A DNA stretch of 64,000 bases, taken from Eledone cirrhosa (lineage: Eukaryota). The translations under genes and the position numbers were made by a program. Below, one piece after another: positions 12,713 through 59,608 of the stretch. Location: assembly GCA_964016885.1 (NCBI GenBank), contig OZ024741.1, positions 45,446,001 to 45,510,000 on the forward strand, given 5' to 3'. The notes beneath the pieces were generated by a model. It made no database searches. It worked only from the letters and a program-made list of their open reading frames with translations, and was not told the origin of the DNA. Position 1 is the stretch's first letter. The number at the start of each line of letters is the position of its first letter.

Positions 12713-15031
12713 GGTTTTTATAAAAGAATCTTCAGTAATCATTGGATAGCAAGTGGCATTACCTACCTTCTACCAAAGAACAACGAAACCAAATATCCAA
12801 AAAACTAGCGGCCCATAACCTGCATGTCCACTACTTATAAACTATTAACCTCTATTCTCATGGAAAAAGCATACGTGTTTTGGAGGAGAACAATCTTTTC
12901 CTCATTGAACAAAAAGGGTGCCGACGAAGTTCATACTTTTGATTAATCGTATGATCCTGGTGAACTGTCATAATAAACACAGAAATCTCAGTTCTGCATG
13001 GATCGATTATAAAAAAGCCTATGACAGCATACCACACTCATGGATTCTGAAATCACTGGACATCTTCAAGATCTCACCTGTGATCTCAAACTTCCTGAAA
13101 CACAATATGTCATTGTCGGACACAAATCTCCAATTGTCTCATTCCACTGAGGTACTGTGCTCTAGGAATATAAACATCAACTGTGGTATATTCCAGGGTG
13201 ACTCACTTTCACCCTTGCTTTTCTGCATAGCTTTAATACCCTTATATCCGAACTTAATAGAACAGGGTACGGTTATAGAATTGACAACAAAAAAATAAGC
13301 CACCTATTTTATATGGATGATTTGAAGCTATATTGCAAAGATAATGACGAACTGGAAGGATTTTGCGAACAGTAAAAATATTTAGCGATGACATCAGGAT
13401 GGAGTTTGGACTTGACAAGTGTGAAAAAGAAACTTTCAAGAAGGGGAAGCGTGTCAACTCAGACTAAGTTGAATTGGATGCTGAAACAATCATAAAGGAA
13501 CTTGAACAGCAACAAACCTATAAATACTTACGGATTAATGAGGGCTCTGGCATACAGCATGTAAGTATGAAAGAGAGAATAAGGAAAGAATGTTACAGGA
13601 GAGTATGTGCAGTTCTGAGAGCAGAACTAAACGCTCGTAACAAGGTGTAGGCATAAATTCCTTGGCAGTCCCAGTTGTCACTTATAGCTTCAGTGTGTTG
13701 AACTGGAATATGAGTGAAATCAAAAGAATCGACACCAAAGCCTGTAATAGAATGCACCACCCAAAAGCAGATGTGGATCGTCTTTACCTTCCTAGAACTG
13801 AAGGAGGCCGTGGATGATCCAATTTGAACTTGCTTACAAGACCACCATCATTGGACTGGCCAAATACCTTGAAACAACTAACGACTGTATGCTGAAACTT
13901 GTTGAAAAGCATGAGAGAAGTAAGAAGCTTCATTCTATCTTGAAGGAGAGCAAAAAATATGCTACTGATCTCATGCTTCATACCCAGGCTGGACAGAATA
14001 AAGAAACTGTGGCAACTGACGCTGCTAGGCACATAAAATCACTGGCAAAAGCAAAAGGGCAAAGACAATTAGCATCAAATTGGGAGCAGAAACCTCTGCA
14101 TAGCAAATATGTGGCCCGTAGCAAACAAGCTGACGTTGACCTAAAGCATACCCATCAGTGGCTACGTAGTTCAGGGCTAAAGGCGGAGAGTGAAGGCTTC
14201 ATCTTAGATGCCCAAGATCAAAGCTTATTAACTCATAATTACCAGGCCAATGTGATGAGAAACGGAATAAACCCAAAGTGCCGATTATGCAATGCTGAGG
14301 TTGAAACAGTGGATCACGATGTAAGGTTTTAGCACCAGTAGAATACAAATATAGACATGACAGAGTTGGCCAATATCTACACTAGGTAATATATCGGCAT
14401 TACAAAATCAAAGCTGAAGACAAGTGGTACGATCATCACCCTGACGCTGTAACTGAAGGAGAAAAAGTAACAATTCTCCGGGACTTTCCTGTACATACTG
14501 GCAGGACCATAAAAGCAAATAGACCTGACATTATTGTAAAAGATCAACATAACAAGGTCTGTTTATTGATAGATATGAGCATCCCATGTGATCACAATAT
14601 CGCGGCAAAAGAATTTGACAAGCTACGAAAATATAAAGATCTGCTTATTGAAATTGAGAAAATGTGGCACCTCAAGGCCGTTACAATACCAGTGATTGTG
14701 GGAGGACTGGCAATGATCAAGAAAGGAACAGAACAATATTTGCGAATGATTCCTGGTTTACCCTCTCTGCACGAGGTGCAAAATATTGTTTTGACTGGTA
14801 CTACACACGTATTGAGAAGAGCACTATCCCTCCTTGTATTTACATATGCATATGCACATGTGTATATATGTATAGTTTTTTTTTTAGTTTTTTTATTATA
14901 ATCAATGTGCTGTATTAACTGGCTTACCAATGCACACTGTGAATTTATTTGACCTAGGTGTCAGGAAGTCATTCGGCATATATCTCAGAAACAATAATGA
15001 AATAAAAAGAAAATAATAATAATAATAATAA
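12713..15031 (+). mobile_element. Dong/R4-like LINE family C, 5'-truncated, decayed
   Basis: WIDYKKAYDSIPHSW, GIFQGDSLSP, YMDD, CRLC..ETVDH, RPDI, KYKDL; (AAT)n tail at 15012-15031. Confidence 0.9.
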
Positions 15032-15359: not shown

Positions 15360-18300
15360 AATTTCTTTATTAGACACAAGGGCACAAAAGAAGGGGACAA
15401 ATACAAATGGGGAGTTTACATACAGGTATATGAAAATAAAACTATTAATACAATAAAAAATAACAATTGAAATCCCCAATAAGGGGGAGGTGTTACACAG
15501 GGGTTGTACACACCCCGAAAAAATGTACAACTCTCATTTCCAGGAGCACCAAGAGTGAGTACTCCCTTCCTCTCTTCCTCTTTTTCCTCAACCTACAGGC
15601 TTATATAGAGAGAAGGCCCAACCACTCGGGCCATCGTTGCCACATTCACCCACCTTTTATGAAATTTGCTGAGGTACAGCACCTCTCTCTCTATCCTGAT
15701 TCTTCTTCCAAAATGATATTTGAAAAAAAGAATCAGTTGCTCGCCGGAGAGAAAGGTGTCTGAACTCACCCCTTTTAATCTCGTCCACCATATAACCTCT
15801 TTCACCATAGCCATAACACATAGGAAAACCGCCTCTCCCTCGTTTTTGAAGGAGGGTGGCGGTTTGATCATGACAATGAACTCGGTGGTCAACTGGATTG
15901 GTCCCACCCGCGACAATAGTCGTTCTACATAACCCCACAGGTCGGTAACGCCCGGGCAGTGTACAAATGCGTGTGCAACGGTTTCATCGTCGCGCATGCA
16001 TCTCGGACAGGTCTTTTTCGAAGGGTCTCTACCCGGGCGCCCTTGTGTGTAGAGCTTGTCTCGAACTGGTAGAGCTCCTCGATAGCACTGCCAGGCCAGG
16101 GACTTTTGAAAGTTGTCCATTGGTCCCGGGCGGAAGGTCCTACCGAAAAGACTGGCCAGTTCGTCCTCCTCTACGCCTAGAGTTTCTCCGAGCGTGTCGT
16201 CGCACTTGCTGCTGACCAACCCTCTATAGAATGTCGAAGTGGAGTCTCCACTGATCGCCGGGTCCGTTTGCCAGAGGACTGTGAGCGCCTGAGCACATTC
16301 GATATACCAGTCGCCCATTTTCCTCGGTCTTTGCTTGACCCAGGTCTGCAGCTCGGTTAGCGAGACGAGTCGTGGGAAGGCTCGCCTCACGAACGGGGCC
16401 CACACCGGTTGTCAGGTGAGGAATACGTGGAGGTGCCGCAGCTTGAGCGCGTGTTCAGCCACGGCATCCCCAGCCCCCCGTTTGAAGGGTGTTGGCAGTA
16501 GATGGATCTTCTCACCAAAGGAGCCCGTTTCTTCCAAAGGAATTGGAAGAGCGCGCGCTCCATTTTGGTGAGCGTTTTGGCTGGACAAGACACAACGGTC
16601 AAGCGGTAGTAGATGACGCTATAAAAGTGTTCGCCACCTCCGCTCGACCTTTAAAGGATAGTTTGCACTCGACCACTTCTGGGTGAGCGCAAACACCTTG
16701 CCATCACCTCGTTCCGGTTCTTCTCCACCTGGAGGTCAGGACCAAACCAGACCCCGAGCAGCTTTACCGGTCCTTCCGTCCAGCGTCCGATGACGTCATC
16801 GGAAGGCATCTGTTTGGTTCTCCACGTTCCGAGTTGCAAACCGACGGTTTTGTCCCGGTTCAGCTTCGCTCCTGTGAACCTTTCGTATTCCTCCAGTAAG
16901 GTGCCGATCTCCCCGATTTGCGAGGTGCTCGACACCATTATGACACGTCGTCGGCGTAGGCCGACGCCGCTTTTCGCAGTCCCAGTTCCAAAGGGATGCA
17001 CTGCAATAGCTACAACTTCCGCAGTAGTGGCTCGAGAGTCAGTACGTACAGAAGGGAGGAGAGAGGGCATCCCTGTCGGATGGATCGCGTGATATGGAAC
17101 GGCTCCGAGAGGTAGCCGTTCACATTGACCCTTGAGCAGATGTTGCTGTTGTGTATTGCAGCAATCCAGCCCCTGAACACGGTACCGAAGCCTGCCGCCT
17201 CGAGCACCGCATCCAGGTAACAATGGTCAACCCTATCGAAAGCCTTAGACTGATCCAAGTTGATCAGGGCCCCACCGAAGCCGGGTTTACACCCTACCCT
17301 CTCTATGATGTATCGCATGAGGTGGAGGTTGTCGTGTATGGACCTGGTCGGGATTGCGCATGTCTGCGCTTCTGCCACCAGGTATTCGACGACAGGCGCT
17401 AGCCTCTTTGCCAACACCTTGGCCAAAATCTGTAACTCTGTGTTGAGCAGAGTTATGGGCCGGAAGTTGCCTATGTCATCCCCCTTGTTCTCGTCCTTCC
17501 TGACTAACGTGATTACGCCCTCACAGAACTGGGAATTCTCCCGTTCAGCTGCCAGTTGCAGTAGACCGCTTCCAGGAAACCGGAGAACAAGTCCGGCATT
17601 GCTACGTAAAATTCGTTGGGTAGACCGTCGAGACCTGGATATTTGCGTTTGCCGCATTGGCTCAGCGCGTCCCCTATCTCAGCGGCCAAAATCGGCCTCT
17701 CACAGAACTTCGCCTTGCTGTCCGAGAGTCGCGGTAGGCTGTCGAGGTATGAACCGAAATCCATGGCCTCTCCTGGCTCCCCGCCCTGCCCGAACAGTTG
17801 AGCAAAGTGCCGCTGAAAGGCCGCGCACATTTGCTTCGGCTCACGTATTGTCACGTCCGTCTTGGTCCTTCCAAGACCAAATCGTGGACTTGTTGCCACT
17901 TTTCGCTCCGTCACTCGGGCCCAGCTAACAGCTTTGGCTCCCTCGTTTCCCAGAGCACGTATTTTGCTTCTGACAACGCAGCCTTCATGCTTTGCGTCGA
18001 AGAACTGTTTCAAGGGCGTTTTTGTCGCTAGCACGCTGGCTACATTGCCACTCCTAAGTGCCTCTTCTATCTTATCTCCCAGTTCCGTTTCGGTCTTATT
18101 TCTATCTAACACTAATTCTTTACTAAAACCTATCGAGTCTAATCTAACTGCCCTCTTGAGAGAGTACCACCATCTGTTGTTGACAATGGCCCCCGTCAAG
18201 TGCTGCTTAACTAATGTGCTAATCCGTCTACTGTAGGCTTTGCATGTCAGTAACGACAAGTTCAGCTTCTAGTAGCCGGGTCCCTGTCTATATGTTTTGT

Positions 18301-19554
18301 CAAGGTTGACTGAGCAGGTCACTAATTTGTGATCTGAATAGGCAACCATGAACATTTGTGGACAGCTTAACATGGCCCTATCCTTCTTTCTGAGTAGAAC
18401 CCTATCTAGGTACGATCTAGATGTTCCGCTACGATTAGTCCACGTCCACAGTGGCACAGTCGGAAAATCTAGTCGATATCTATCGGCCAGGTCAAATCGG
18501 CCGATTAACTGTTTGAGGCTGTTACACCCCCTCTATCGGGACATGCTCCCACATAGTCCCAACGTGCATCTAGGATTCCATTCCAGTCCCCCACTAACAG
18601 CATGGAGCGGGACGTTCCCAGAAAAGTCTCTAGACGTTTGAAGAAGTCTGGCCGCGGTGTCCCGGATGGAGCATATGCGGCCACCAGCCTGAAGGCTCCA
18701 CCTTCACTACCGTCAACGTCTAGGACCACCAGTCGACTCTCCAAGTCCAGATGTACCGTCTGTGTTACGAGGTCCAGGTGTTTCCGCAGCAAAACGGCAA
18801 CCCCATCCCCCACCTCCCGGCTGACAGAGAGATGCGTGGATCTCAAAGTTGTCGAAGATGGAGGCCAGTTGTCGCTCGCTGTGGATCCTGGACTAACAAA
18901 AGGCTACTACATCCATGATGTGCGACCTGAGGTCGTTTAAGAGTTTGCCCTGTTTCCAGGGCATCCCCAGGCCGCGTACATTCACACATGCAACTCTTAT
19001 ATTGGCCATGTTGGTGCTGAAAAGTTAACAGAAGAGGAAAAGAAAGGGTTACCTACGTCGTTAGGAAATTTTTCTTTTAACTGTTTATGTGTGTCCATGG
19101 AGGTCCTAATCATTTTAAGATTAGGATTCTCCGAAGAGTGTGTAAAAGTTTTCCCTTCGGTTTCCAGCGAAGGTTTTTTATATATGGTGTCTGTTAAAGT
19201 TTTATTGTTAGTATTTATGTAGGTGTAACATTTTTGATGTGTTGGGTTGCTTTTTGTCTGTGGTTCTTGTGTGTGTAGTAGGTGTTTTGATTTCAGAAAG
19301 GGGTGTTTTTGTTTGTGCTGTTTGCGTCGCTTGTGTTGGTGTTTGTGTGTTTGTTGCATTTTTGTTTGTGTTATGTCTTTTCTTTTTTCTTTTTACTGGT
19401 CGGAAAGGCTCTCCCTCATCGTCACTGGGTGACGATGATGAGGCCTCATCCGTGTTGTTGGGGAGGGGTACGTTTTGGGATGCTGTTATGTGCGTGGGTG
19501 TTTCTGGAGTTGTTTTAGGTGGGGAGGGGTTGGGTGGGACTGTGTTTGTCGTTT
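15360..19554 (-). mobile_element. Tx1-like LINE family C, 5'-truncated in ORF1, decayed, with 20-bp TSD
   Basis: APE (AYAP, GDWN, YSDH), RT (NLDQSKAFDRV, RQGCPLS), CPRC..ETVAHAFVHC from ATG 19009 to 15593; GATAGATAGATAAATAGATA at 15340-15359 and 19555-19574. Confidence 0.92.
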
Positions 19555-20331: not shown

Positions 20332-20398
20332 ACTGATGCTATTTGCTGATTTTATAATAATAAGTATTATTTTTATAAAGTCAGCAAATAGCATCAGT
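20332..20398. repeat. Short hairpin abutting the first (TAA)n tract
   Basis: actgatgctatttgctga...tcagcaaatagcatcagt. Confidence 0.85.
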
Positions 20399-20436
20399 AA
20401 TAATAATAATAATAATAATAATTATTATTATTATTA

Positions 20437-20763
20437 TTCGACACCAGAGTGCAAGAGAAGGAGAGGGAGAAAATTAACCGATACCAGGACTTAAAGTGGG
20501 AGGTAAAAGGATTTGGAACTGCCATTAAGTCAAAGTGGTCCCGATTGTCATAGTCGCACTAGGTGCTATCTCAAAAGGTTTCCAGGGATGGTTAAAGAAA
20601 ATTGGCCCCGCCCCGATTTTTGGAACACTTCAAAAGGCATGCTTGCTGGGAACAGCAATAACTCTCCGATACGTCCTGAATATCTGAGGTTGCAGGTAGT
20701 GGCTTGATATTCATTTCAACAAACTTTCCAGTTAACTAACATCAATGACTGAGACTCAAAGAA
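20437..20763 (+). mobile_element. Dong family B 3' fragment (plus strand) with (TAA)n tail
   Basis: Reverse complement of family B 3' end (e.g. 25819-26143); tail 20764-20827. Confidence 0.9.
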
Positions 20764-20764
20764 C

Positions 20765-20811
<47 letters not shown>

Positions 20812-20843
20812 TAATAATAATAATAATTATTATTATTATTATT

Positions 20844-23800
20844 ACAGTTGCATTTATATTGCTTTATGTTCATACGAGTTATCACCAAGTCACAACCAGT
20901 GACCTCAAGAGACAACAAGGTCCGCCATGTTCAAGGAAGAACATACATACTCACACATGCATCTTTAGTGTTTAGACTTGTGATGTACTTATATTGACAG
21001 AATCTTCCTTAGTATATGGGCAGTTCCCATTAGTACTATCTTTTGTATTTCTCCGATACGCGGGTTTCCTGGGATCTGCGATAAGTAATCATTAGACCCC
21101 TTAGGTATCATTCCCAGAGCGATTACAACCACTGGTATTGTTTTAGTTCTCAATTTCCACATTTTTCCAATTTCTATCTCCAGATCCTTATACTTGCTCA
21201 ATTTTTCAAATGTTTTTATAGATACATTCTTGTCTATTGGAACAGACATATCAATTAGCAGGCATACCCTCTTTTTAAAGTCCTTCAATATTATATCAGG
21301 TCTATTTGCATCTATTTTTCGGTCTGTTTGGATGCTAAAGTTCCACAAGATTGAGATGTGATCTTTTTCAAGTATGGGAGGTGGTTGATGCTCCCACCAA
21401 TTCTTTTGATGGGGCAGGTCAAAATGCTTACACATTATCCAATGTATGTATTGTGCAGCTCTGTCATGCCTGTTTAGGTATTCGGTTGGAGCTATAGGAC
21501 TGCACATTGAAATTATATGGTCAATGGCCTCTGGTTGTTTTTTGCATACACGGAATAATGGGCTGCATCCATTTTTTATTATGTTGGCTTGGTAATTTTT
21601 TGTTGGCAGACACTGATCTTGTGCTGATATAATCAGTCCTTCAGTCTCCGATTTCAGTCCAGAGGATGCCAACCACTGATGGGTTAAAGTTTTGTCAACA
21701 TCAGGATTGTTAGCTCGCTCTGGGTATTTTCCATACAGAGGCTTTTCTTGCCATTTCTTAGCCAGTTTCTGTAGCAGTTCTTTCTTTGCAGTTACTTTTA
21801 CCTGCTTTGCTTTTTCTGTGTTTTCCATTTCAGCAGTAAATGGGACTTCTGAAATTTGTAGTCCATTACTGTATCTTTGTGCATCTTTTGTAATGGAATA
21901 TGATCTTTTGATGCTTTCGTGTTTCAAAACGAGTTTGATCATCCAATCATGTGATTCCCTTAGATATGTAGATAATCCAATTGTTGCAGTTTTCAACGCA
22001 ATGTCTAACTGGATTAACCCACGTCCTCCTTCTTTCCCAGGGAGATATATTCTATCTATATCTGCCTTAGGATGATGCATTCTGTGCATGGTTAAGAATT
22101 TTCGAATTTTTGTATCGAGCCTACGGATCTCTGTGCTTGACCAGTTGATGACATTGTAACTGTAGGTTACTACTGGTATGGCAAGCGTGTTTATGGCATC
22201 GATCCTATTCCTTGCATTCAATTCCGTTCTTAAGATTGCTCTTACTCTGCTGTAACATTCCTTCCTTATCCTTTCCCTCATTTTCGAGTGCTTGATTCCG
22301 TCTCCTTCACAAACACCTAGATATTTGTAAGTGTTTTCTTGATCAAGTTCTCTTATCACGTTCCCCCGATCAAGATTAATGTCTGAACTCTTCAGCAGCT
22401 TTCCTCGGGTGAACGTTGCTTTGGCGCATTTATCTAGTCCAAACTCCATTTTAATGTCATCACTGAACTGCTCCACAGTGGATAATAGCCATTGCAATTG
22501 TTCATCATTTTTTGCAAATAGTTTCAGGTCATCCATGTAGAACAGGTGATTAATGGTTTTGTCATAGACTTTATATCCATGTTTTGTTTCATTGAGCATT
22601 TTACTTAATGGTATAAGTGCGATGCAGAATAAAAGCGGTGATAAAGAGTCACCCTGAAAAATTCCACAATTAATATTAACTTCTCCAGCTTTCAGTGATT
22701 TTGTTTCACTATTTCAAAGGAGTGTCGTTTTCCATGTCTTCATACTGAATGACAAAAACCTCCTGACAACGGGGGATATTTTTAAAATCTCTAAACATTT
22801 TTCAATCCAACTGTGTGGCAAACTATCGAATGCTTTTTTATAATCTATCCAAGCAATCGATAGATTTTTGTGTCTATTATGACAATCTTCCAGTATCATT
22901 TTGTTAACCAGAAGCTGATCCGTACAGCCATATGAGCCTCGTTTACACCCTTTCTGCTCAATGGGAAATAGGTCATTTGTTATCAGGTGGTCATATGTGT
23001 ATTCAGTTAGGACTGATGGTAAAATATTATACATTGTGGTCAAGCAAGTTATCGGTCTGTAATTTTTTGGATTGTTTGTCTCATCATTCTTCGGAAGTAG
23101 GAATGTACTGCCGTTAACTAGCCATGATGGTATCTTTTCTGGCTCCTTAACTATTTCATTGTAAAGTTGGGCTAACAGCTCATGAGACTCTGTGAAGGCA
23201 TTTATCCAAAAGTTTTGTATTTTGTCTTTTCCTGGGGATTTCCATTTGCTGGTTTTTCTTAGAGCCAAGCGCAACTGTTCAACTGTTATATTTTCCCATA
23301 TTTGTTCCTCAAGGTGAGCTGTATCTTTCATTTGTCTGTCTATCCATGGGGCATGTACGTTATGAACTTTTTCTTCGGCCCAGATCTTTTCCCAGAATTC
23401 TTGCACATCCTCCTTGGGTGGTATTGATTTAGCAGTTATTGTTGACTTACCAATTTTTCTGTAGAAGTTTCTTTGGTTGTTTTTGAACATATTATTGTCC
23501 TTATAGAATCTAGATCGTTTTTCAAAGCGCCTTATACGAGCAGCTTTGGCCGACACTTTTTGCTTGATTATTTCTATCAGCATGTCTATGTTACATGTTG
23601 ATTTTATACTGTACTTTTTTTTCAATTTTCTAAGTTTTGTTTGTTTAACATGTTCACCTACTTTATAGTTTGTTAAAATTTCTATGTCAGATCGGAGAAG
23701 GTTTATTTGGCGATTGATGTTCTCTTGCCAAGTAGATTTCTTTTGGGAATTCCTTTGTTTTTTCATCTTCACTCCACATAAGTGAGTGGTGACTTTAGCC

Positions 23801-25784
23801 GATGCATAATAGAGATGATTTAAATCAGTAATGTTTAGTTTGTTTGTGATGATAATGTTTTTGAGAATTATGTTAGTCTTCTGTATTATCTTTTGGTTCT
23901 GTTTGGAGTTCTGGATCTTAGGGAAGGTGTCTCGTTGCCCCATGTCAGATTCTTTCATTTTCATCCATTCGATCATAATTTCATCCTTCAAGTTGGCAAG
24001 TTCATTCTCATTCATTTCTTTATCATTTACGATCTCATTATTTTCATTTGGAGTTTCATCCTGAGCATGCACGCCCTCCACTTTTTCGATCCTTTCTTTA
24101 ATTTGTTCTGTTGCCAGTGATTCCGCCCCAACCCTGAGGTTCGAAGTGTTACAGTTTACCTCGTTTTCACTGACACATGTTTCATTTTCCCTTCGCTGAC
24201 TTTGTGCTAATAGCTTGATCTGATCAATTTCTATATCAGTTAGTAACTTTTTTCTTACAATATTTCTTCGTATATTGGCTAGTTTCTTACTGTCAATATA
24301 GCCTCTGTTTTCGGGATGTTTCTTTTTCCAGTTGATATATGTCTGTTCTGTATTCGATGTATTTGATGGGTAGTACATGGCAGTGTAAAAAGCCTCAAGG
24401 ACTTCTTTATTATCTTCCCTTGACCATTTTCTCTCTTTTTCTTTGGATTTCTTGGTGGTGAGCATGGAGGGCCAACAGTAGGAGTATTCCGGTTATGGGA
24501 GGTTTCCAGCTCCGTAGTGATGGAAAGGTTTGAACCATTAGCTGATTTTTCGACCCCAGTCTGGTTCCTCTCTGAGGGACGCGGCCCTTTTTTACCCGGG
24601 TGACGGCCGATCCGGTATGAGATTTTATCATTAGACATTTACTTTATTTTGTCGCGTTTTCTCCTTATCCGCCAAGGGGTAATCATTTCGTGTTACCACT
24701 ACTTGAACGATTGTTAACCAAGACTAGAGGGGTCGTTCTCCCCTAGAGACACGGCTATTCCCCGCCGGCCGCCATCCCGGTATTTCTTGGTCACGGGGTT
24801 TTCTTTTTGTTGTTTTTTTTAAATTGTTATTATCATGAGTGGTTCCTTAATGTGAGCATTGCGTGGCTTAAGAATGAAATTATTAATAATTGTCTCCACT
24901 CCAGGCACAAGGCCAGCAATCACCCAGTGCATTACAATAATATAATATACTTTTTGCTGTAGTTGCCTGTTATTGTTGTTGGCTATGTCGGTGGTGGTGC
25001 CGGGGCTTTTTATATTGTTGGTGAGGAAGGGGTGAGCCAGCAGTCCCATAGTTGTTGATGTTGACGTTTGGCCGGTGGCCAGGTCACTAAGTCAATCTAT
25101 TTATATCTGCTAGCATCTCCCTTGTCTAGTGATACCGCCACCTTCCCCTTTCTCTCTCAAGTTAACAGGGGAATAGTGGTGGTAGCAATGAAGGAGTGGT
25201 GGCGGCGGCGATGGGATAGTGGTAGCAAGATGATGGATGGAGTGGTGGCGGCGGTGGCGTTGTGGTTACTGGGTTTTGTGATATGTAGTATCTATGAGTT
25301 TGTGTTCGTATGTTTAATATATATTGTGTTGACATATTCCCGTAAAATTGGAATTAAACATTTTGTTAAAATTTGAGACAATAATAATAGTAATTATTAT
25401 TATCATGCCGGGATTGATGGTGGTGTTGGTGAAATTGCCGTTATCTGGCTGTTATATTTAGTGTGATGGGATAGGTGGTGTATCAAGTTTCTGGTGTTGG
25501 TGAAATTGCTGTTATTTGGCTGTTCTATATAGTGTAGACAGAGGGTGTTTTCTTCCATTTATAACCATTTTCTTTTTTTGAATACAAAATATATAATACA
25601 AAATTGAATATTTGAGCGATATAACAATATAATATGGATCCGAAATTTTATGGGACTTCATTCGGTGGTTTATGCAACATTTGTACTAAGAATTGTTATT
25701 TCACAATTAATTTAAATATGTTAAAAATCATAAACTTACGGGAGCGATTTCATGACCTTCTACCACCTCGTGCGTCTTCTTCCC
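20844..25784 (-). mobile_element. Dong/R4-like LINE family A copy 1, full length
   Basis: Single long ORF region 24638-20989, ~1.1-kb 5' region, (TTA)n at both flanks. Confidence 0.92.
20989..24638 (-). pseudogene. RT + CCHC + PD-(D/E)xK restriction-like endonuclease, disrupted
   Basis: NYRPITCL, WIDYKKAFD, GIFQGDSLSP, YMDDLK, RHD, RPDI..D..P..K..KY.DL; frameshift near 24430 and in-frame TGA at 22714-22716. Confidence 0.92.
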
Positions 25785-25818
25785 TTATTATTATTATTAT
25801 TATTATTGTTATTGTTAT

Positions 25819-27359
25819 TCCTTGAATCTCAGTCATTGATGTTGGTTAACTGGAAAGTCCGTTCGATTGAATATCAAGCCACTACCTGCAGCCTCAGATA
25901 TTCAGGACGTATCGGAGGGTTCTTGCTGTTCCAAGCAAGCATGCCTTTTGAAGCGTTCCAAAAAGCGTGAAGGGGCCGATTTTCTTTAACCATCCCTGGA
26001 AACCTTTGGAGATAGTCCCCAGTGCGCCTATGACAATCGGGATCACTTTGACTTCATGGCAGTTCCAAATCCTTTTCACCTCCCACTTTAGGTCCTGGTA
26101 TCGGTTAATTTTCTCCCTCTCCTTCTCTTGCACTCTCGTGTCGAACGGGCAGGCCACATCCACAATCAGGCACGATCTTTTTTCTTTGTCCACAACCACC
26201 AGGTCAGGTCTATTGTGTTCCAGTTTTTTGTCCGTCTGTATCCTAAAATCCCACAGCACCTTCACCTGACTGTTCTCCATCACCGCCTCTGGCCTATGCT
26301 CATACCATTTCTCAGAATGTGGTAGATTGTTTACTTTGCACAGGTGCCAGTGGATCACCCTGCCCATCACATCGTGTCTCCAGCCCTTATAGTGGGTCTG
26401 GGCTAGGTGTTTACACTCGGACACAATGTGAGCCACAGTCTCCTCTCTCTCTCCACAGATCCTGCACAGTGGGCTAGCCTCCTCCTTGTAGATATGGTGC
26501 TTCAACCACTTCGTTTTGAGGGCCTGCTCCTGCGCAGCCATTAGCATTCCTTCTGTAGCCTTTTTGAGGTCTCCTCTTCTCAACCAGTTCCATGTCTGTG
26601 GATCTCTAAATTAAGTTTTCTCAAAGAAGGTACTATGAAGGGATTTTCCCTTAAGGCTGCTCTTCCTCCTTGATGTTATTTCCTTCTTGATGTTATTTCC
26701 TCCTTGGACATCCCCTGGTCTACTGTCCCCTCCTTCAGTACAGTTCTGAGCATTGGCTCCTTACTATAGGTCACGTATTTGTATAGGTTGTTTTTCTCCA
26801 TCTGAACACAGTCCTCTATGCTGATAAGACCTCTTCCACCCTCAGATCTCCTTAGGTAGAGTCTATCGACATCACTCCTCTTGTGGAACATGTTGTAGAT
26901 AGTCAATAGCTTCCTAGTCTTCCTATCCATTTCTTTTTGTTCAGCAACATTCCATCTCAGAATTCCCGCACTGTACCTAATAATAGACACAGCTCGGGAA
27001 TTTACTGCGCTTATGGCATTTCTGCTGTTCAGATGTGACTTCAATACGCTCCTTACTCTCCGAATGTATTCAGTTCTTAACAATTCCTTCATTTTTTTGT
27101 TCTTTATGCCATCAGCCTCCAGAACGCCCAAATACTTGTATCCTTCCTCAGAGTCAATTTCCTTTATCATCTCACCTGTTGGTATCTGGATCCCGTTACT
27201 TCTGCTCAACCTACCCCTCTTCATCACAATGACTCCACATTTACCAATACCAAACTGCATACATATATCACTGCTGAAAATACGGACAGTGTCAACAAGC
27301 ACATCCAACTCCTTCTCACTTTTCCCGAAGAGCTTAAGATCGTCCATGAAGAGGAGGTG

Positions 27360-27814: not shown

Positions 27815-30800
27815 AGCCTCATACCAACATCACCATTGTAAATATCAGTACGTTTGCCAAAACTAAAAATATAAGCAGTAGCAATAATTTAAATTTGTCT
27901 CATGCAGACATTCATTTCCCGCCATTACCAATGACTGCAGGTGTTGAAGCCGCCATCCCCACCACCCCACAGCGACAACAGAAACAAAAGAAAAAAATAA
28001 ATTATCTCGTGACATCAAAATGGATTCACCCAGAATGGACTCTTCCACACCGAACACCACTGATGCGACCACCACCACAACTGAAACTAAAAATAACACT
28101 AACAAAAGTAACGATAACAACAACAGCAACAACAACAATGAGAATAACAACATCTTGTCTTTTGCCAAACAGTTAAAACATGCGAAACAATCCAGGTAAC
28201 TCAGGAGGAACTAGATGAAGCCAAGAAAATTGTAAAGAAAGATGGATACAGGGTCAGCCTCACCCCCCACCAAATAAAATGGACCATCGGTGCCTATGCA
28301 CCGTGTCTTATCGGACGATTAACATAAAATCGCGCCGAGTGGAACCGGCATCTGAGTCCCAAATCCAAAAAGCTTTGGGACATGTGTGGGCAAAAAAAAC
28401 CCACTTCAGACGTGGGAGAAATATGGAACCATGGACGTGTTCTTTGGAACACCACAAGAGGCCAGAGAACACTCCATGGCCCCATTAAGAAGTGACGACT
28501 TCACACTCGTCCTAAGCTATTGTGGCCAGAGACTCGTGAAAATCAGGGTGACCCACGTTCCACCGGCCATCGAAATTTCATGGCTAATAGCTGCCGTCCT
28601 CGCCAGCATCGAGGCCAACACCAAGATAATCGAAATAGCTAAAGAAAAGCAGGAGAACTGCTCCGGATCTGGGATGGAGCTCCTGATTCAAGCGGACCAA
28701 AAAAGCATTGAGGAGATCCCAGAGGTAATAGACCTCACTAACGGCAGCCACTCACGGTAATCGTCGAGGGAAGAAGGCCTAGGTGTGTTGTTTGTGGTGA
28801 AGGAGCCCACCTAAGGGCTTTGTGCCCTCAGGCTAAAAGGTTGAGGCCACCTTTCTTACCCACCCCAGTGACTCAACCATCAACACCACCAGCAGCAGAA
28901 ATGGCAGCAACAACTGTAGCAGCAACAACAGAAGCAACTGTAACAGCAACAATTCCAGCAACAGTAGCAAAACCAACACCACCACCACCCAACGCGCCAG
29001 AACTAGCACCAGGACCTACACGATCCAACACGCCACAACCCAAACCAACGCCTGTGAGGATTTTCCCCTCCCCGACCTATCGCAATTGGAGACCGATTGT
29101 GACGACGAGGAGTGGGAAACGGTATCAGGAAAAAAGAAAAAAAGAAAAAGAAGCCAAAAAAGAAAAAAATCCTCTTCCATCCCCCTCCAAAAACAAAATA
29201 CAATGGAAAACAAATAAACTATCAAACAAGAAAGTTAGGACAGCTATGCCACTATCCACACCAGCATCACCAACCCCATCACGACAAACACCAACACCAT
29301 CACCATCATTAACCCCAACACCACCATCACCAACACCACAAAAGTCACCAAAACAACCAAAACGATACAAAATACACAATATTAAATTTGAACAACAATC
29401 AATTATTACACTACATCCAACACAACACCAGCATCACAGAAAAAGACTACACAACACCCCAAAAGTTCACACCACCTCCACACATACAAATCACTCGAAT
29501 CACACAGAAAACGTACACGACACTAAAACAAAAATTCCCCAAAGACACGGAGACATCCAACAAGCACTCTGCAGGAGGATTTATAAGGACATCCTTCCGG
29601 AGGAGGCCACAAGCAGTGAAAAGGATGGAAAAACCATCCTTCCCCTACGAGAAGTAAGGTAAGTGGTCTTTCCCATCTTTTACACTCCATTTCAACATGA
29701 CCTCACTCAGAATAGGCAGCATAAAGGCGCGTGGCTTGGGGCAGTCATGGAAGCAAGGCCACCTGCTCAACGACCTCAGGTCACTAAACATAGATGTAGT
29801 GGCCATCAGCGAGATTAGAATCGCTGAAGCACGGGCCTTCGCACCGATCTTCGGCGACTACGATGTGTACGCATCTCCCAGCCGTTCTGGATCGGGGGGG
29901 AGGAGTTGCTGTGCTTTTTCGGAGAGGTTTGGATCTCGCCATACGGGCCATCTTCCTGGACCCAGAAGCTAAGTTGGTGGTGCTGGACGTGACCAGCGGA
30001 GCCGGGCAAGCCTTCAGGCTAGTGGCCGTCTATGACCCTACAGGAGCAGGACGGCCTGACATCTTCCGGCGTCTGGAGAACTTTCTTGGAACGTCTCGCT
30101 CTTTAGTGTTAGTGGGCGACTGGAACGGGATCTTAGATGCACGCTGGGACTGTGTGGGATTAGCCGATAGGGGAGGAGGGTGCAAGAGCCTCACCAACCT
30201 CCTCAGGCGTTTCGAACTGTCTGACAGGTACCGATTGGATTTCCCGAATGTGCCAATGTGGACTTGGACAAATCGTATAGGGTCATCCAGATCATATCTA
30301 GATAGAGTATTTTGTAGGGAAATACATAGGTCTAGCATAGGCTGTCCACAATTCAAGATAGTCAGTTACACGGACCACAAATTCGTGATCTGTGTGTTGA
30401 CTTATATAGGCTTCATAGACGAGGACCCGGCTACTGGAAGCTAAACGCGTCTTTACCAGCGCGTAAGGCCTACAGAGACCGGATTAGCGAACTAGTTAAG
30501 CGGGCTTTGACGGGGGCCATCGTCAACAACAAGTGGTGGTTTGCTCTGAAAACAGCGATTAGAATAGAGTCCATTAGGTTTAGTAAGGCTTTAGCAATAG
30601 AGAAAAATAGAGCAGAGGGAGAACTAGTTAGAAAATTAGACGAGGCCCTTAGCAAAGGCATCGCGACCGACGTACTTGCGGCGAAATTGGCCCTTGACCA
30701 ATTCTTCATGCAAAGCACGAAGGCTGCGTTGTCAGAGCTAGGGTGCTTGCTCTCAGACACGAGGGGGCGAAAGCCGTTCAATGGGCCCGAGTGGCGGAAG

Positions 30801-33338
30801 CGCGTTGTGGCAACAAAGCCACGTTCCGGTCTTTGGTGGACCACGACGGGCGCATGCTACTCGATCCCGGGCAAATGTGCGAAGCTTTCCAGCGTCACTT
30901 CGCACAGCTGTTCGGGGGCAGCGGCGGGCCGGTTCGAAGGATGGACTTTAGTGTCTACCTCGACGGACTGCCGCGGCTCTCGGCCTCTGTGGCGGAGTGT
31001 TGCGAAAAGCCGATAACAGCCGCTGAAGTACGGGAGGCAATGACTGGCTGCACAAGGGGTAAATCGCCTAGTTTGGATGGTCTGCCCTATGAACTTTGCG
31101 TACAGATGCCAGACTTGTTCGGAGGCCTCTTGGCGGACGTCTACTGCAACTGGCAACAGAACGGGAGAATTCCCAGCTCTATGAGCCGAGTAGCTGTGGC
31201 GCTGCTGATAAAAAAACCCCCACTTATGGGGATAACAGATAATTTCAGGACCATAACTCTGCTAAACACAGAGTTCAAGATTTTGGCCAAGGTGCTAGCA
31301 AAGAGGTTGGCGCTTGTCGTTGGTGGTCTGGTGGGAGAGGCGCAGACGTGCGCCATTCCCGACAGATCCATCCACGACAACCTCCACCTCATGCGATACA
31401 TCGTAGAGAGGGTAGCTAAGGAACCTGGCACGGGTGGGTACTTGATCAATTTAGATCATTCGAAAGATTTCGATAGGGTCGACCATCGTTACCTAGCAGC
31501 AGTCCTGAGGGCGGCTGGCTTTGGGCCCGTCTTCAGAGGCTGGATCGCTGCCATGCACAGCGACATCTGCTCTGTAGTGAGAGTGAAAGGTCACCTTTCG
31601 GAACCGTTCAACATCATGCGTTCGGTCCGCCAAGAATGTCCCATCTCGTCCCTCTTGTACGTATTGACTCTCGAGCCATTACTACACAAACTGGAGACTT
31701 TGAGGGGGTCCCGTGCGAACTAGGATGCGGAAGATCCGTGTCAGCATATGCGGACAATGTCACCGTAGTGGTGTCGAACGCCAAACACATCGAGGCGATC
31801 TGCATAACACTATGAGAATACGAAGCGGTGACAGGAGCAATGATCAACCAGGAAAAGTCAGTGGGCCTGCAGCTCGGCACCTGGAGAGGCAGGTCCATGC
31901 CGTCCAACAGCGTCGTCGGGCGCTGGAGGGACGTCCGGTTAAATTGCTAGGGGTCTGGTTCGGTCCAGACCTCCAGACGGACAAAAACTGGGACGAGGTG
32001 ACGAGCAGGGTGGCTTCTCTCACCCAGAAATGGGCAGAGAGGAAGCTATCCCTGAAAAGGTCGAGCGGAGGTGGGTAACGCGTACATCGCCTCCGTCATC
32101 TACTACCACCTGATCGTCTTGCCTTGTCCTAAGCCTAGCCAGACTGCGCTGGAGCGTTTGATCTTTCGCTTTTGTGGAAGAGACGCGCTCCGTCTTCTTT
32201 CAACAGCCGCTACGTGGAGGGCTGGGCATGCAATGGCTGATGATGCGCAGACATGCGCTCAGGCTACGACATCTCCACCTCTTCCTCGACGGTGATCTGG
32301 TGTGGTCGCCGTTTGCTAGACGCGTCTTTCCCCAGCTCGTGTTCTTGAGTCCTGGGTCAAACGAAGACCGAGAGGGAGCGCTTGGAGACTGGAATATCTT
32401 CAGGCGCTCACAGCCCTCGACCAATCGGGCAATGTGATCGGTGGAAACTCCATCTTGGCCTTCTATAGAGGATTAGTGGAGGGAAAGAGCGACGACGTAC
32501 TTGGGGAAACTCTAGGCGTCGACGAAAATCAACTAGCCAATCTCTTCGGAAGAACTTTCGGGCCCGGGCCTATGGACAACTTCCAGAAATCCCTGGCCTG
32601 GCAGTGCTACCGAGGAGCTTTGCCAGTTCGAGATAAACTCTACAGGCATGGAGATTCCGTCAGCCGGGCATGTCCGAGATGTGCGCAGGGCGACGAAACC
32701 GTCCTGCACGCACTCGTCCAGTGTCCGAGCATTGCTGACTTGTGGCTTTATGTCGAACGCCTGCTGTCGCGTGTAGGACGGATCCAGCTATCAGCTGAGT
32801 CCTTCGTGAGAATTTCCCGCCCTCTTCCTTTAGCCGGGAAGGGCAGGCAGTTTTCATATGTCTGGTGGCCATGGCGAAAGAGATAGTATGGTGGACACGT
32901 TTGAAAGGGCTGAAGACGAGCACTTACCTCTTTGGTGATGCCCTGATTAACTTTTTCAAATTTCATTTAAAAAGGAAAATCAGGGTAGAGAAGGAAGTGC
33001 TCTCTTCCCAGCATTTTATTGAAAGATGGGTGAGGGAGGCAAGATTGGTCCGAGTGAATGGGCCTACTCTGAGTATGTGTCTGTAAATTAAAGGTGGAAA
33101 ACTGGGAGAGGACAATCGCCCTGGTGGTCAGGGTCACTCTGGCTTTATAATAGGCTTTCTACACGAATGTCCCTCGGAAGTCTCCCCCCTATTGGGGAAT
33201 TTTTTCATTGTTCTATTATTACATCCTCTGTTTCTTGTTTTTTTTACACGCAGAAATGCCCATTTGTACCGTCCTGTATTGTCCTGTACTGTCCTTAATG
33301 TCTACTTTGTGTAAACCCTTGTGGTTAATAAAGAAATC
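27815..33338 (+). mobile_element. Tx1-like LINE family A copy 1, decayed, slightly 5'-truncated
   Basis: Colinear with 37425-43025; ORF1 fragments to 29662, ORF2 fragments 29697-33086; (TTA)n tail. Confidence 0.92.
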
Positions 33339-33350
33339 ATTATTATTATA

Positions 33351-33410
33351 AAGTACCAGTAACACACTGGTTAATTGCTGGCCTTGTGCCAAACGTAGAA
33401 ACAATTATTA
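33351..33410 (+). repeat. Short SINE-tail-like remnant; related copy on minus strand at 24880-24935
   Basis: cactgg..attgctggccttgtgcc...g.a.acaattattaat at both loci. Confidence 0.55.
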
Positions 33411-33420
33411 ATATTATTAT

Positions 33421-36400
33421 AGTTGCATTTATCTTGCTTTATGTTCATAGGAGTTATCACCAAGTCACAACCAGTGACCTCACGAGAAAATAGGGACGGC
33501 CATGTTCAAATAAAGAACATACATACTCACACATGCATCTTTAGTGTTTAGACTTGTGATGTACTTATATTGACAAAATATTCCTTAGTATATGGGCAGT
33601 TTCCATTAGTACTATCTTTTGTATTTCTCCGATACGCGGGTTTCCTGGGATTTGCGATAAGTAATCATTAGACCCCTTAGGTATCATTCCCAGAGCGCCT
33701 ACAACCACTGGTATTGTTTTAGTTCTCAATTTCCACATTTTTCCAATTTCTATCTCCAGGTCCTTATACTTGCTCAATTTTTCAAATGTTTTTATAGAAA
33801 CCATCTTGTCTATTGGAACGGACATATCAATTAGCAGGCATACCTTCTTTTTAAAGTCCTTCAATATTATATCAGGTCTATTTGCATCTATTTTTCGGTC
33901 TGTTTGGATGCTAAAGTTCCACAAGATTGAGATGTGATCTTTTTCAAGTATGGGAGGTGGTTGATGCTCCCACCAATTCTTTTGATGGGGCAGGTCAAAA
34001 TGCTTACACATTATCCAATGTATGTATTGTGCAGCTCTGTCATGCCTGTTTAGGTATTCGGTTGGAGCTATAGGACTGCACATTGAAATTATATGGTCAA
34101 TGGTCTCTGGTTGTTTTTTGCATACACGGAATAATGGGCTGCATCCATTTTTTATTATGTTGGCTTGGTAATTTTTTGTTGGCAGACACTGATCTTGTGC
34201 TGATATAATCAGTCCTTCAGTCTCCGATTTCAGTCCAGAGGATGCCAACCACTGATGGGTTAAAGTTTTGTCAACATCAGGATTGTTAGCTCGCTCTGGG
34301 TATTTTCCATACAGAGGCTTTTCTTGCCATTTCTTAGCCAGTTTCTGTAGCAGTTCTTTCTTTGCAGTTACTTTTACCTGCTTTGCTTTTTCTGTGTTTT
34401 CCATTTCAGCAGTAAATGGGACTTCTGAAATTTGTAGTCCATTACTGTATCTTTGTGCATCTTTTGTAATGGAATATGATCTTTTGATGCTTTCGTGTTT
34501 CAAAACGAGTTTGATCATCCAATCATGTGATTCCCTTAGATATGTAGATAATCCAATTGTTGCAGTTTTCAACGCAATGTCTAACTGGATTAACCCACAT
34601 CCTCCTTCTTTCCTAGGGAGATATATTCTATCTATATCTGCCTTAGGGTGATGCATTCTGTGCATGGTTAAGAATTTTCGAATTTTTGTATCGATCCTAC
34701 GGATCTCTGTGATTGACCAGTTGATGACATTGTAACTGTAGGTTACTACTGGTATGGCAAGCGTGTTTATGGCATCGATCCTATTCCTTGCATTCAATTC
34801 CGTTCTTAAGATTGCTCTTACTCTGCGGTAACATTCCTTCCTTATACTTTCCCTCATTTTCGAGTGCTTGATTCCGTCTCCTTCACAAACACCTAGATAT
34901 TTGTAAGTTTTTTTCTTGATCAAGTTCTCTTATCACGTTCCCCCGATCAAGATTAATGTCTGAATCTTCAGCAACTTTCCTCTGGTGAACGTTGCTTTGG
35001 CGCATTTATCTAGTCCAAACTCCATTTTAATGTCATCACTGAACTGCTCCACAGTGGATAAAAGCCATTGCAATTGTTCATCATTTTTTGCAAATAGTTT
35101 CAGGCCATCCATGTAGAAGAAGTGATTAATGGTTTTGTCATAGACTTTATATCCATGTTTTGTTTCATTGAGCATTTTACTTAATGGTATAAGTGCGATG
35201 CAGAATAAAAGCGGTGATAATGAGTCACCCTGAAAAATTCCACAATTAATATTAACTTCTCCAGCTTCCAGTGATTTTGTTTCACTATTTCAAAGGAGTG
35301 TCGTTTTCCAAGTCTTCATACTGAATGACAAAAACCTCCTGACAACGGGGGATATTTTGAAAGTCTCTAAACATTTTTCAATCCAACTGTGTGGCAAACT
35401 ATCGAATGCTTTTTTATAATCTATCCAAGCAATCGATAGATTTTTGTGTCTATTATGACAATCTTCCAGTATCATTTTGTTAACCAAGAGCTGATCCTTA
35501 CAGCCATATGAGCCTCGTTTACACCCTTTCTGCTCAATGGGAAATAGGTCATTTGTTATCAGGTGGTCATATGTGTATTCAGTTAGGACTGATGTTAAAA
35601 TTTTATACATTGTGGTCAAGCAAGTTATCGGTCTGTAATTTTTGAGATTGTTTGTCTCATCATTCTTCGGAAGCAGGAATGTAATGCCGTTAACTAGCCA
35701 TGATGATATCTTTTCTGGCGCCTTAACTATTTCATTGTAAAGTTGGGCTAACAGCTCATGAGACTCTGTGAAGGCATTTATCCAAAAGTTTTGTATTTTG
35801 TCTTTTCCTGGGGATTTCCATTTGCTGGTTTTTCTTAGAGCCAAGGGCAACTGTTCAACTGTTATATTTTCCCATATTCGTTCCTCAAGGTGAGCTGTAT
35901 CTTTCATTTGTCTGTCTATCCATGGGGCATGTATGTTATGAACTTTTTCTTCGGCCCAGATCTTTTCCCAGAATTCTTGCACTTCCTCCTTGGGTGGTAT
36001 TGATTTAGCAGTTATTGTTGACTTACCAATTTTTCTGTAGAAGTTTCTTTGGTTGTTTTTGAACATATTATTGTCCTTATAGAATCTAGATCGTTTTTCA
36101 AAGCGCCTTATACGAGCAGCTTTGGCCGACACTTTTTGCTTGATTATTTCTTTCAGCATGTCTATGTCACTTGTTGATTTTATACTGTACTTTCTTTTTA
36201 ATTTTCCAAGTTTAGTTTGTTTAACATGTTCACCTACTTTATAGTTTGTTAAAATTTCTATGTCACATCGGAGAAGGTTTATTTGGCGATTGATGTTCTC
36301 TTGCCAAGTAGATTTCTTGTGGGAATTCCTTTGTTTCTTCATCTTCACTCATTATCTTTTGGTTCTGTTTGGAGTTCTGGATCTTAGGGAGAGTGTCTCG

Positions 36401-37105
36401 TTGCCCCATGTCAGACTCTTTCATTTTCATCCATTCGATCATAATTTCATCCTTCAAGTTGGCAAGTTCATTCTCATTCATTTCTTTATCATTTACGATC
36501 TCATTATTTTCATTTGGATTTTCATCCTGAGCATGCACTCCCTCCACTTTTTCGCTCCTTTCTTTAATTTGTTCTGTTGCCAGTGATTCCGCCCCAACTC
36601 TGGGATTCGAAGTGTTACAGTTTACCTCGTTTTCACTGACACATGCTTCATTTTCCCTTCGCTGACTTTGTGCTACTAGCTTGATCTGATCAATTTCTAT
36701 ATCAGTTAGTAACTTTTTTCTTACAATATTTCTTCGTATATTGGCTAGTTTGTTACTGTCAATATAGCCTCTGTTTTCGGGATGTTTCTTTTTCCAGTTG
36801 ATATATGTCTGTTCTATATTCGATGTATTTGATGGGTAGTACATGGCAGTGTAGAAAGCCTCAAGGACTTCTTTATTATCTTCCCTTGACCATTTTTCTC
36901 TCTTTTTCTTTGGATTTCTTGGTGGTGAGCATGGAGGGCCAACAGTAGGAGTATTCCGGTTATGGGAGGTCTCCAGCTCCGAAGTGATGGGAAGGTTTGA
37001 ACCATTAGCTGATTTTTCGACGCCAGTCTGGTTCCTCTCTGAGGGACGCGGCCCTTTTTTACCCGGGTGACGGCCGATCCGGTATGAGATTTTATCATTA
37101 GACAT
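33421..37105 (-). mobile_element. Dong family A copy 2, truncated exactly at the start codon
   Basis: Near-identical to 20844-24638; ~110-bp internal deletion near 36350; same in-frame TGA at 35290-35292. Confidence 0.92.
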
Positions 37106-37115
37106 TATTATTAGA

Positions 37116-37146
<31 letters not shown>

Positions 37147-37363
37147 GGCGACCTACGTAGTAAATCGTATCATCGTGAGCTCCGCAAAGGTTTGTTATTT
37201 CAGTTTGTTAAAAATTGTCATTTATTCATTTATGGAAAATTTTATTGTTAACTGTTTATAAGCGCACATACATTGTTTTCCGAAAAGGACACCCAAAAAG
37301 ATTGGGGCCTTGTGCCCAAAATTTAAACTTTTATTATTATCAAAAAAAATTTCTTAGAAAAAA

Positions 37364-39329: not shown

Positions 39330-39363
39330 GTGGTCTTTCCCATCTTTTCCACTCCTTTTCAAC

Positions 39364-42783: not shown

Positions 42784-43264
42784 ATTAAAGGTGGAAAACT
42801 GGGAGAGGGCACTTGCCCTGGTGGTCAGGGCCACTGTGGTCTTTTAATGGGTTTTCTCTACAAATGTCCCTTGGAAGTCTCCCCCCTATTGGGGAATTTT
42901 TCATTGTTATTTTATTTCAACCTCTGTTTTTTACACGCAGAAATGCCCATTTGTACCGTCCTGTATTGTCCTGTACTGTCCTTAATGTCTACTTTATGTG
43001 AACCCTTGTGGTTAATAAAGAAAACATTATTATTATTATTATTATTATTGAATGCCATGGTTGACGGAGGCTCGGCTCTGTAAGGTATAGTAATTTTTAA
43101 CCGTTAAAACAATTGTAAATTGTTTAAAACTTGAACCAAATTGTTGATAAAGACACCCTCCTCCTCGTGAGAGGGGTCTTTCTGTCCGTTATTTGGCCCT
43201 TCGGGGTTAAATAACCAGTTATTGGGGTTTTGTACCCAAAATTTCATTTTAAACAAAAAACAAC

Positions 43265-45355: not shown

Positions 45356-45389
45356 GTGGTCTTTCCCATCTTTTCCACTCCTTTTAAAC

Positions 45390-48809: not shown

Positions 48810-49070
48810 ACTAAAGGTGGAAAACTGGGAGAGGGCACTTGCCTTGGTGGTCAGGGTCATTGTGGCTTTTTACTGGGCTTTCTCCACAAATGTCCCTCCG
48901 AAGTCTCCCCCCTATTGGGGAATTTTTCATTGTTATTTTCATCGTTATTTTTGTTACATCCTCTGTTTTTGTTTTTTTTACACGCAGAAATGCCCATTTG
49001 TACCGTCCTGCATTGTCCTGCACTGTCCTTAATGTCTACTTTATGTAAACCCTTGTGGTTAATAAAGAAA

Positions 49071-49071
<1 letters not shown>

Positions 49072-49152
<81 letters not shown>
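49072..49152. repeat. (TTA)n target/tail tract shared tail-to-tail by Tx1-B and Dong-B; one of ~11 such tracts
   Basis: Other tracts at 20399-20438, 20764-20843, 25785-25818, 27359-27420, 33338-33421, 37106-37146, 43026-43049, 53918-53978, 58503-58527, 59608-59666. Confidence 0.97.
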
Positions 49153-49154
<2 letters not shown>

Positions 49155-53966: not shown

Positions 53967-53978
53967 GTTGTTGTTATT

Positions 53979-58502: not shown

Positions 58503-58527
58503 TTATTATTATTATCACCATTGTTAT

Positions 58528-59606: not shown

Positions 59607-59608
<2 letters not shown>
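58528..59608 (-). mobile_element. Dong family B 3' fragment (~1.1 kb)
   Basis: ORF 58603-59598; TTA flanks. Confidence 0.92.

Follow-up and report, generated by a model that had tools for sequence, protein, structure and literature searches.

Replacement of the 5′ end by that of a related element is known from mammalian L1 retrotransposons. In the F, A and V types of the mouse the outer 5′ segment moves, while the proximal UTR and the ORF stay (PMC3600994, PMC5381506), and 11 such 5′UTR replacements are estimated for mouse L1 (PMC3600994). Template switching is among the routes proposed for mammalian L1, as is strand switching for the mouse (PMC3600994). The moving segment holds tandem units, as do the UTRs of many L1 elements (PMC5381506), and promoter activity has been shown for the mouse monomers. 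Among vertebrate L1 the replacement is nearly confined to mammals; the same paper saw none in L1 of fish, of frog or of clade 2 in the lizard, with one exception in lizard clade 1, and the turnover of 5′ ends is treated as a mark of an arms race between mammalian L1 and its host (PMC5381506). The two retrotransposon families described here, A and B, resemble mammalian L1 in that an outer 5′ segment is common to elements with their own proximal UTR and ORF, and in the tandem units carried in one of the B copies. They differ in that the L1 partners are close relatives within one lineage, whereas A and B, which probably belong to an invertebrate, are 39% identical in protein, carry a restriction-like endonuclease and have a microsatellite target in common; their module is also a putative promoter, where that of the mouse has been shown to be active. 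The likeness to promoter replacement in mammalian L1 that had been proposed from inspection of this DNA holds for the mode of working and fails for the identity of the elements, as A and B are not L1.

A second comparison is with R2 and R1 of Drosophila, for which template jumps at the 5′ end and hybrids of families at one locus have been reported (PMC3414825). In the hybrid SIDEs, as here, the 5′ end of one site-specific family is joined to a family sharing its locus, and the hybrid spreads; however, SIDEs are short, non-coding and ribozyme-bearing, whereas A has a full-length ORF and no ribozyme fold that we could find (PMC3414825). Beyond these hybrids, we found no published 5′ exchange of this kind outside L1 in a search covering few subscription journals and no repeat-library entries. 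The Pr77 hallmark of trypanosomatid L1Tc/ingi is likewise a 5′ signature common to different retroelements of one genome, but it is a short ribozyme within one clade, whereas the A/B module is 610 bp long, has a sharp break and spans an old lineage split (PMC4035085). The Dong element of Bombyx mori shares with A and B a single ORF, a reverse transcriptase (RT), a restriction-like endonuclease motif, a (TAA)n target and, putatively, a conserved N-terminal domain (PMC7998251, PMC3812793, PMC3774820). It differs by an HDV-like ribozyme at its 5′ end (PMC3774820), where A and B have a UTR of 1.1-1.3 kb with none found. Octopus vulgaris has 51 Dong-R4 consensus families, and five recently active Dong-R4 families with 1129 insertions (PMC13282606); octopus Dong elements are also mentioned in PMC9115989 and PMC8967140, and the accessible portions of these three papers contain no treatment of shared Dong 5′ ends.

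Two Dong-like families in a (TAA)n nest

From about 12,700 on, the window (the whole stretch of DNA that was analysed, 64,000 nucleotides) is a nest of non-LTR retrotransposons spaced by (TAA)n runs. The host is probably an octopus, to judge from the octopus-like look of a SINE. Two Dong-like families, A and B, occupy its minus strand, and Tx1-like elements with an APE domain fill the rest. Family A is represented by A1 (minus strand, 3′ end at 20846, start codon at 24638), which has the module at its 5′ end, and by A2 (33421-37106, minus strand), which is 5′-truncated at the start codon and has a short repeat of junction letters inside the (TAA)n run at its 5′ junction. The two are identical at 3598 of 3683 positions (97.7%), i.e. 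2.3% apart. Family B has three longer copies, all on the minus strand: B1 (49154-53917, ATG at 52622), B2 (53967-58502) and B3 (from 59656 to past 64000, where the window stops), with bodies 96.2-97.3% identical (2.7-3.8% apart). A 5′-truncated B 3′ fragment (25808-27359, minus strand) lies directly upstream of the A1 module and is 99.3% identical to B3 over the last 1.1 kb; the (TAA)n run at 25785-25807 (minus strand) is both its tail and the insertion site of A1. Another B 3′ fragment is found at 58520-59607, and a short one on the plus strand (20439-20763, within 20398-20845) has (TAA)n/(TTA)n runs in inverted orientation on its two sides and meets A1 tail to tail, so that both insertion orientations occur at one microsatellite. 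TAA-rich runs adjoin six of six 5′ junctions and seven of seven 3′ junctions, two of the latter runs being short or degenerate. The two families occupy these (TAA)n nests together, frequently in head-to-tail order.

The ORF of A1 (20989-24638, minus strand), with its start ATG at 24638 set by the frame of A2, has a frameshift near 24426 and an in-frame TGA at 22714-22716, and comprises an N-terminal domain in common with the relatives of B, an RT and a restriction-like endonuclease motif. The coding regions of A and B differ as heavily as had been claimed: the proteins are 39.5% identical over 872 residues, and the coding DNA gives a single 41-nt BLAST match (E=0.001). When relatives of B3 were collected (8000 scored candidates), all of the best 120 of 2063 hits were closer to B than A is, with 48-67% identity to B and 36-41% to A; as B was the query, this shows just that many lineages lie nearer B than A does. 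A quick tree on 24 of these 120 places A on a long branch, and the identities alone were used for conclusions.

A and B are not L1, having a single ORF and no APE domain. Pfam finds RVT_1 above the cut-off in both halves of A1 and in B3 and finds no Exo_endo_phos (APE endonuclease) in either, whereas the neighbouring Tx1-like ORFs have the APE domain. In the PDB, B3 has its best matches among R2 proteins (E=7.5e-31). In both families a CCHC knuckle is followed by a restriction-like endonuclease motif, PD...D/E...K, identified by pattern match only; the knuckle is intact in B3, and its first Cys has become Phe in A1 and A2. An N-terminal profile built from 81 relatives of B matches B1 (E=2e-67) and A2 (E=9e-15) and does not match Tx1 ORF1, while BLASTP between the N-termini of A and B yields no match and Pfam names nothing in the N-terminal ORF of B1. 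A diverged Myb/SANT-like N-terminal domain is among the features of R4/Dong (PMC7998251; family traits also in PMC3812793). A and B appear to be R4/Dong-like, the label “Dong” coming from architecture, target and the original prediction, with relatives that carry no informative names.

Other elements of the window are given here for completeness. A third, decayed Dong-like family lies at 12743-14832 on the plus strand, with longer pieces 44-65% identical to the A protein; it is 5′-truncated and so has no 5′ end to compare with the module. At least three Tx1-like APE families are found at 15609-18982 (minus strand) and at 27817-33336, 37418-43023 and 43253-49072 (plus strand). They belong to the same nest, have (ATT)n at their ends and face Dong copies tail to tail. 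Between the Tx1-like copies at 39282-43023 and 45307-49070, ORF2 is 95.5% alike and the ORF1s only about 65%, possibly a second 5′ swap. Broken RT-like ORFs at 3041-4610 on the minus strand, for which Pfam offers no name over 3675-4610, are by eye what we take to be Penelope-like.

The 5′ module of A1 and the B copies

The outermost part of A1 is a module of 611 bp (25174-25784, minus strand; GC 0.36) with 17 CpG, the observed/expected ratio being 1.02 as compared with 0.86 in B1, i.e. not depleted. BLAST finds it on the minus strand of all three B copies, at 53321-53917 in B1 (E=2e-137), 58053-58502 in B2 (E=3e-98) and 63745-64000 in B3 (E=6e-18), where it is cut by the window end. Gap-free identity to the A1 module is 474/556 (85.3%) for B1, 371/426 (87.1%) for B2 and 186/227 (81.9%) for B3, so that A1 is 13-18% away from each B copy in the window, with the B modules up to 11% apart and B1 and B2 agreeing at 406/426 (95.3%). 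By local alignment the module scores 574, and the best of 100 block shuffles reaches 39. Five motifs quoted in the original prediction are present exactly in 25174-25784 (5/5), B2 (5/5) and B1 (4/5), with none of the five in B3, whose module is not only cut by the window end but also more diverged than those of B1 and B2. BLAST, shuffles and quoted motifs thus bear out the colinearity of 25175-25784 with three B 5′ ends; the span proposed for the module, from 25150, is correct as to the homology itself and too long at its boundary, since homology ends at 25174.

A1 and B2 start on the same base after (TAA)n, and B1 starts about 24 nt later. B2 and B3 are without about 160-170 bp of the middle of the module that is common to A1 and B1. 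The UTR of B1 contains two tandem copies of a 106-bp unit (53168-53381, minus strand; 107/108 identical), and homology between A and B stops sharply at 25174, in the middle of this unit. The B UTRs differ in build: that of B1 has two 106-bp units plus a middle segment of ~160 bp (53274-53381, 53382-53544), while B2 and B3 have one unit and no middle segment, B1 and B2 nonetheless being the closer pair by substitutions, and the B subfamilies may be mosaics of each other. In each of the four copies a presumably TATA-like word occurs about 215 nt into the module (25550-25570; 53700-53722; minus strand), and is preceded in the B modules by a presumably YY1-like word that is altered in A.

It is very improbable that the module is a functional RNA or promoter conserved since the ancestor of A and B. 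Such conservation would have parallels in Bombyx Dong, whose 5′ end bears a ribozyme of a conserved type (PMC3774820), and in the UTRs of lizard L1 clade 1, which are alignable between divergent families (PMC5381506). Here, though, 85-87% identity extends over 600 bp including AT-rich spacers, where the coding DNA is unalignable, and the module evolves fast. Non-coding DNA of this identity that is up to 11% apart among the B copies cannot date from the A/B split, and by this comparison the module is not common to A and B by common descent. No ribozyme fold was found either: Rfam gives no match up to E=1 in the UTRs (77 Rfam matches in all, each below its gathering score). An HDV-like descriptor of our own, run with no positive control, gave 0 hits in its strict form, and in its relaxed form 0 sense-strand hits in A1 and B2, none in the module, and a single loose core close to the ORF in both B1 and B3.

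A second alternative makes the module no 5′ end but a short repeat in its own right, or else an extension of the B 3′ end, standing behind B tails and carried by the downstream element. Three of three modules with a visible start do come after a B 3′ end and (TAA)n, but three of the six B 3′ ends in the window have no module behind them, the module is upstream in all three B copies that keep the ORF start, and its start points vary like 5′ junctions, as the later start of B1 illustrates. In public contigs of the run X1 (see below) the module has a bin depth of 15,000-74,000, much less than the 508,000-876,000 of the B 3′ end, as would be expected of a 5′ end, although this is a weak measure. 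We consider this alternative improbable.

Past the break the UTR of A continues with about 535 bp peculiar to this family, 24639-25173. The core 5′ UTR (24639-24884, minus strand; 13 CpG in 24639-24869) is spanned by single contigs in three runs. The A-specific middle UTR (24942-25173, minus strand) has no detectable B homology and is multi-copy (contigs X4 record 10 and X7 record 25; X1 rows 24960 and 25115). A long hairpin is predicted in it right behind the junction (24990-25175, minus strand), none of 200 shuffles being as stable; its z of -3.09 is inflated, as it was picked after a sliding scan of 40 windows, and compares with z=0.79 for the module start and z=0.07 for the core UTR. The proximal UTRs of A and B were said to be unrelated, and BLAST agrees, finding no match between them. 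The possibility that 24940-25173 is a decayed B proximal UTR was rejected: three motifs look similar, yet 89 of 810 control pieces score as well against B1, a 30-nt match to the B3 proximal UTR that exceeds 100 shuffles is not significant against block shuffles and controls, and nhmmer returns E=0.8 for this relationship, which is not significant.

The module in public contigs

As A2 is truncated at the start codon, the window alone cannot tell a feature of family A from a chimera. Contigs of four public runs (X1, X4, X5 and X7, from three studies and under four organism codes) were aligned to 23400-26400. The evidence is drawn from 32 of 11,106 pieces, from 40 of the 130 rows of differences and from 15 of the 44 joints; the depth of contigs does not measure copy number, and loose ends at the first base of the module were left out as repeat (25773-25825).

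Single pieces run from the A ORF through the A-specific UTR in X4 (record 10, 23619-25108, 18 other letters), into it in X7 (record 25, 23400-25024), and over 23400-24956 in X5 (record 17). The module junction is bridged by X7 record 27 (25122-25388), with 52 letters on the left and 215 on the right; of 266, 6 are other letters and 3 are gap letters. By comparison, B1 departs from the window at 33 of 151 columns in 25250-25419, so this contig is far nearer the window than B1 is and is of the A-linked type. Cover continues into the module with X7 record 28 (25373-25673, 8 other letters), X5 record 19 (3) and X4 record 12 (0), and near 25600-25720 there are two slightly different A-linked variants in each of X4 (records 13 and 14) and X5 (records 20 and 21). 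Two low-depth X1 joints (24968-25170 and 24996-25169) also connect the A-specific UTR to the module side. Among the listed pieces 1 of 32 bridges the junction and 0 run from ORF to module, the link being tiled from different runs, with almost no cover in X7 over 25024-25122.

The window's own locus is not the source of these contigs, since they carry majority letters of X1 that are absent from the window. The window's letter has an X1 depth of 12-21 (by subtraction) at 23638, 23743, 24661 and 25426, while the other letter reaches 21,820 at 24960 and 24,307 at 25115. At 12 of 14 places in the ORF the contig letter is found in A2, the remaining two being one gap and one A1 letter (2 of 16 listed rows, which are minor variants, were left out). 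Inside the module the listed other letters equal the B1 letter at 10 of 10 places, so much of the X1 module signal could be B1-type contigs; the other letters of X7 record 27 are also those of B1, which implies that the window's A1 copy has private changes. The X1 depth of about 5,900 at 25264 is a quarter of that at 25115, and perhaps only part of the A copies carry the module. In further samples under the same organism code or from the same study the sequence words are all but absent (X20 0.04, X21 0.00, X22 0.00), and we therefore make no claim of presence in several species; the codes may not stand for host species.

The check that had been proposed was whether other A copies carry the module with A-specific variants, or have a different 5′ end, which would make A1 a one-off chimera. 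The contigs join the A ORF to its UTR and the UTR to the module, with letters not found in the window, and so support the former and argue against the latter, by tiling and not on one molecule. If A1 merely lay, at a single locus, after a 5′ end left there by an old B-like copy, this would fit the presence of the module on only one A copy in the window, the wealth of nested and truncated copies in the nest, and the lack of a single contig from ORF to module among the listed pieces. We nevertheless give it a slim chance, as the junction-bridging and A-UTR contigs show majority letters without counterpart in the window, X1 depth exceeds 24,000 at the A-specific 25115 as compared with 12-21 for window-only letters, and no remainder of a B UTR is found beyond the 3′ end of A1. 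A wrong joining of an A copy to a B 5′ end by the assembly is extremely improbable: tandem repeat nests are hard to assemble, but the module lies 13-18% away from each of the window's B copies, and the junction is spanned by an independent contig. The module is thus likely to be a family-level feature of A, to judge from the tiled contigs.

A search for the module elsewhere gave its 19-base pattern in 10 metagenome and 8 viral loci; 1 of the 18 had a BLAST match (44 nt around the pattern, E=1e-4), and these were dismissed as chance.

Age, possible direction and proposed routes of the exchange

The comparisons above point to a real, probably family-wide exchange of 5′ ends between two deeply split Dong-like lineages. 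Of the original prediction of a recent exchange, the separate history of the module and its spread in the family stand, and “recent” holds only relative to the A/B split. In 220 columns common to the four modules, identities are 203 for A1/B1, 198 for A1/B2, 182 for A1/B3, 210 for B1/B2, 196 for B1/B3 and 196 for B2/B3. Relative to present copies the transfer is not recent, since A1 and B1 differ at 17 of 220 columns and B3 and B1 at 24; the A1 module is no further from B1 than that of B3 is, which makes the transfer about as old as the radiation of the B subfamilies. On these distances it is older than the present A copies (A1/A2 2.3% apart, B bodies 2.7-3.8%).

The direction of transfer appears, weakly, to be from B to A. 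This is favoured by the break inside a B repeat unit, by what A1 shares with B1 alone (the middle segment, and 8 nt close to the 5′ end), and by the smallest four-point sum, which groups A1 with B1 (41, vs 46 and 48, a margin of 5 columns in 220 on an unrooted quartet). An equally real and family-wide exchange with A as donor and B as recipient, or one in which the module came to both families from a third element or from host sequence, seems unlikely to us. It would be compatible with the unrooted quartet, with the about equally long branches of A1 and B3, and with the number of Dong-R4 consensus families in O. vulgaris (51), which would offer many possible donors if the host is similar, the window having two or three. 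Against it, the break lies inside a unit that continues intact and is doubled in B1, A1/B1 agree at 203/220 columns and B3/B1 at 196/220, and the 5′ regions of three Tx1-like families show no module match (11, 20 and 89 of 100 shuffles as good).

The explanation that we favour, and hold as a whole to be reasonably probable, is that the source element of A acquired a B-type 5′ end and was then amplified. A and B would be long-separated (TAA)n-targeting lineages whose copies accumulate, head to tail, in shared microsatellite nests, where the common target would put A beside or inside B 5′ ends. The source element of A would have gained the outer ~610 bp of a B-type 5′ end, replacing or preceding its own, and then multiplied, the presumed donor being a B1-like member of the B lineage. 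The transfer could have occurred if read-through that began at a B 5′ end reached an A copy nested there, or if the reverse transcriptase jumped from A RNA to B RNA, two routes that are indistinguishable here. As an internal RNA polymerase II promoter, the module would allow transcription, and hence spread, of the chimera. Given the rest, we incline moderately to such a promoter role, because CpG is not depleted, a unit is tandemly repeated in B1 and no HDV-like fold is found on the sense strand; the GC of 0.36 is low for an L1-type promoter and counts against it.

If this is correct, swapping of 5′ ends also occurs in the R4/Dong-like clade, between site-specific elements 39% identical in protein and in what is probably a mollusc. 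It would have taken place across a depth that gives no foothold to ordinary homologous recombination, with contact supplied by the common target. It also raises the question of how 5′ ends are formed in Dong-like elements without an evident ribozyme. This is a fact about repeats, and its reach is limited accordingly.

A1 and A2 have in common the in-frame TGA in the RT (22714-22716) and Phe for the first knuckle Cys (21555; 34131 in A2), unlike the private changes of A1 further 5′, which are absent from A2. The source copy of A may thus have been defective, or read through. A bolder reading, which we find doubtful, is that (TAA)n nests are sites of repeated 5′ end trading between anciently separated lineages and that A is a passenger from a defective source, with a B-type 5′ end and dependent on the protein of another element; promoter capture would then have turned a crippled full-length LINE into a successful passenger.

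The UTR of A also contains the 3′ fragment of a SINE-like repeat that is very abundant (24885-24941, minus strand); the fragment is flanked by 6-bp direct repeats (24885-24890 and 24936-24941). It was considered as a scar of the insertion of A itself, an idea weakened by the direct repeats and by an X1 contig without the fragment (depth 33, joint 24868-24936), with a depth peak and loose ends at the fragment. This contig indicates that the fragment is a later insertion into the UTR and not a scar, and one argument for the read-through route is thereby gone. The fragment matches 33359-33413, part of the spacer that separates a Tx1-like tail from that of A2, at 45 of 55 positions, and a weaker motif resembling a SINE end occurs in the 5′ regions of two Tx1-like families, at about 37299-37340 and 43221-43250. 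Each pair scores above 100 shuffles in short alignments, and SINE ends may have entered the 5′ UTRs of several families.
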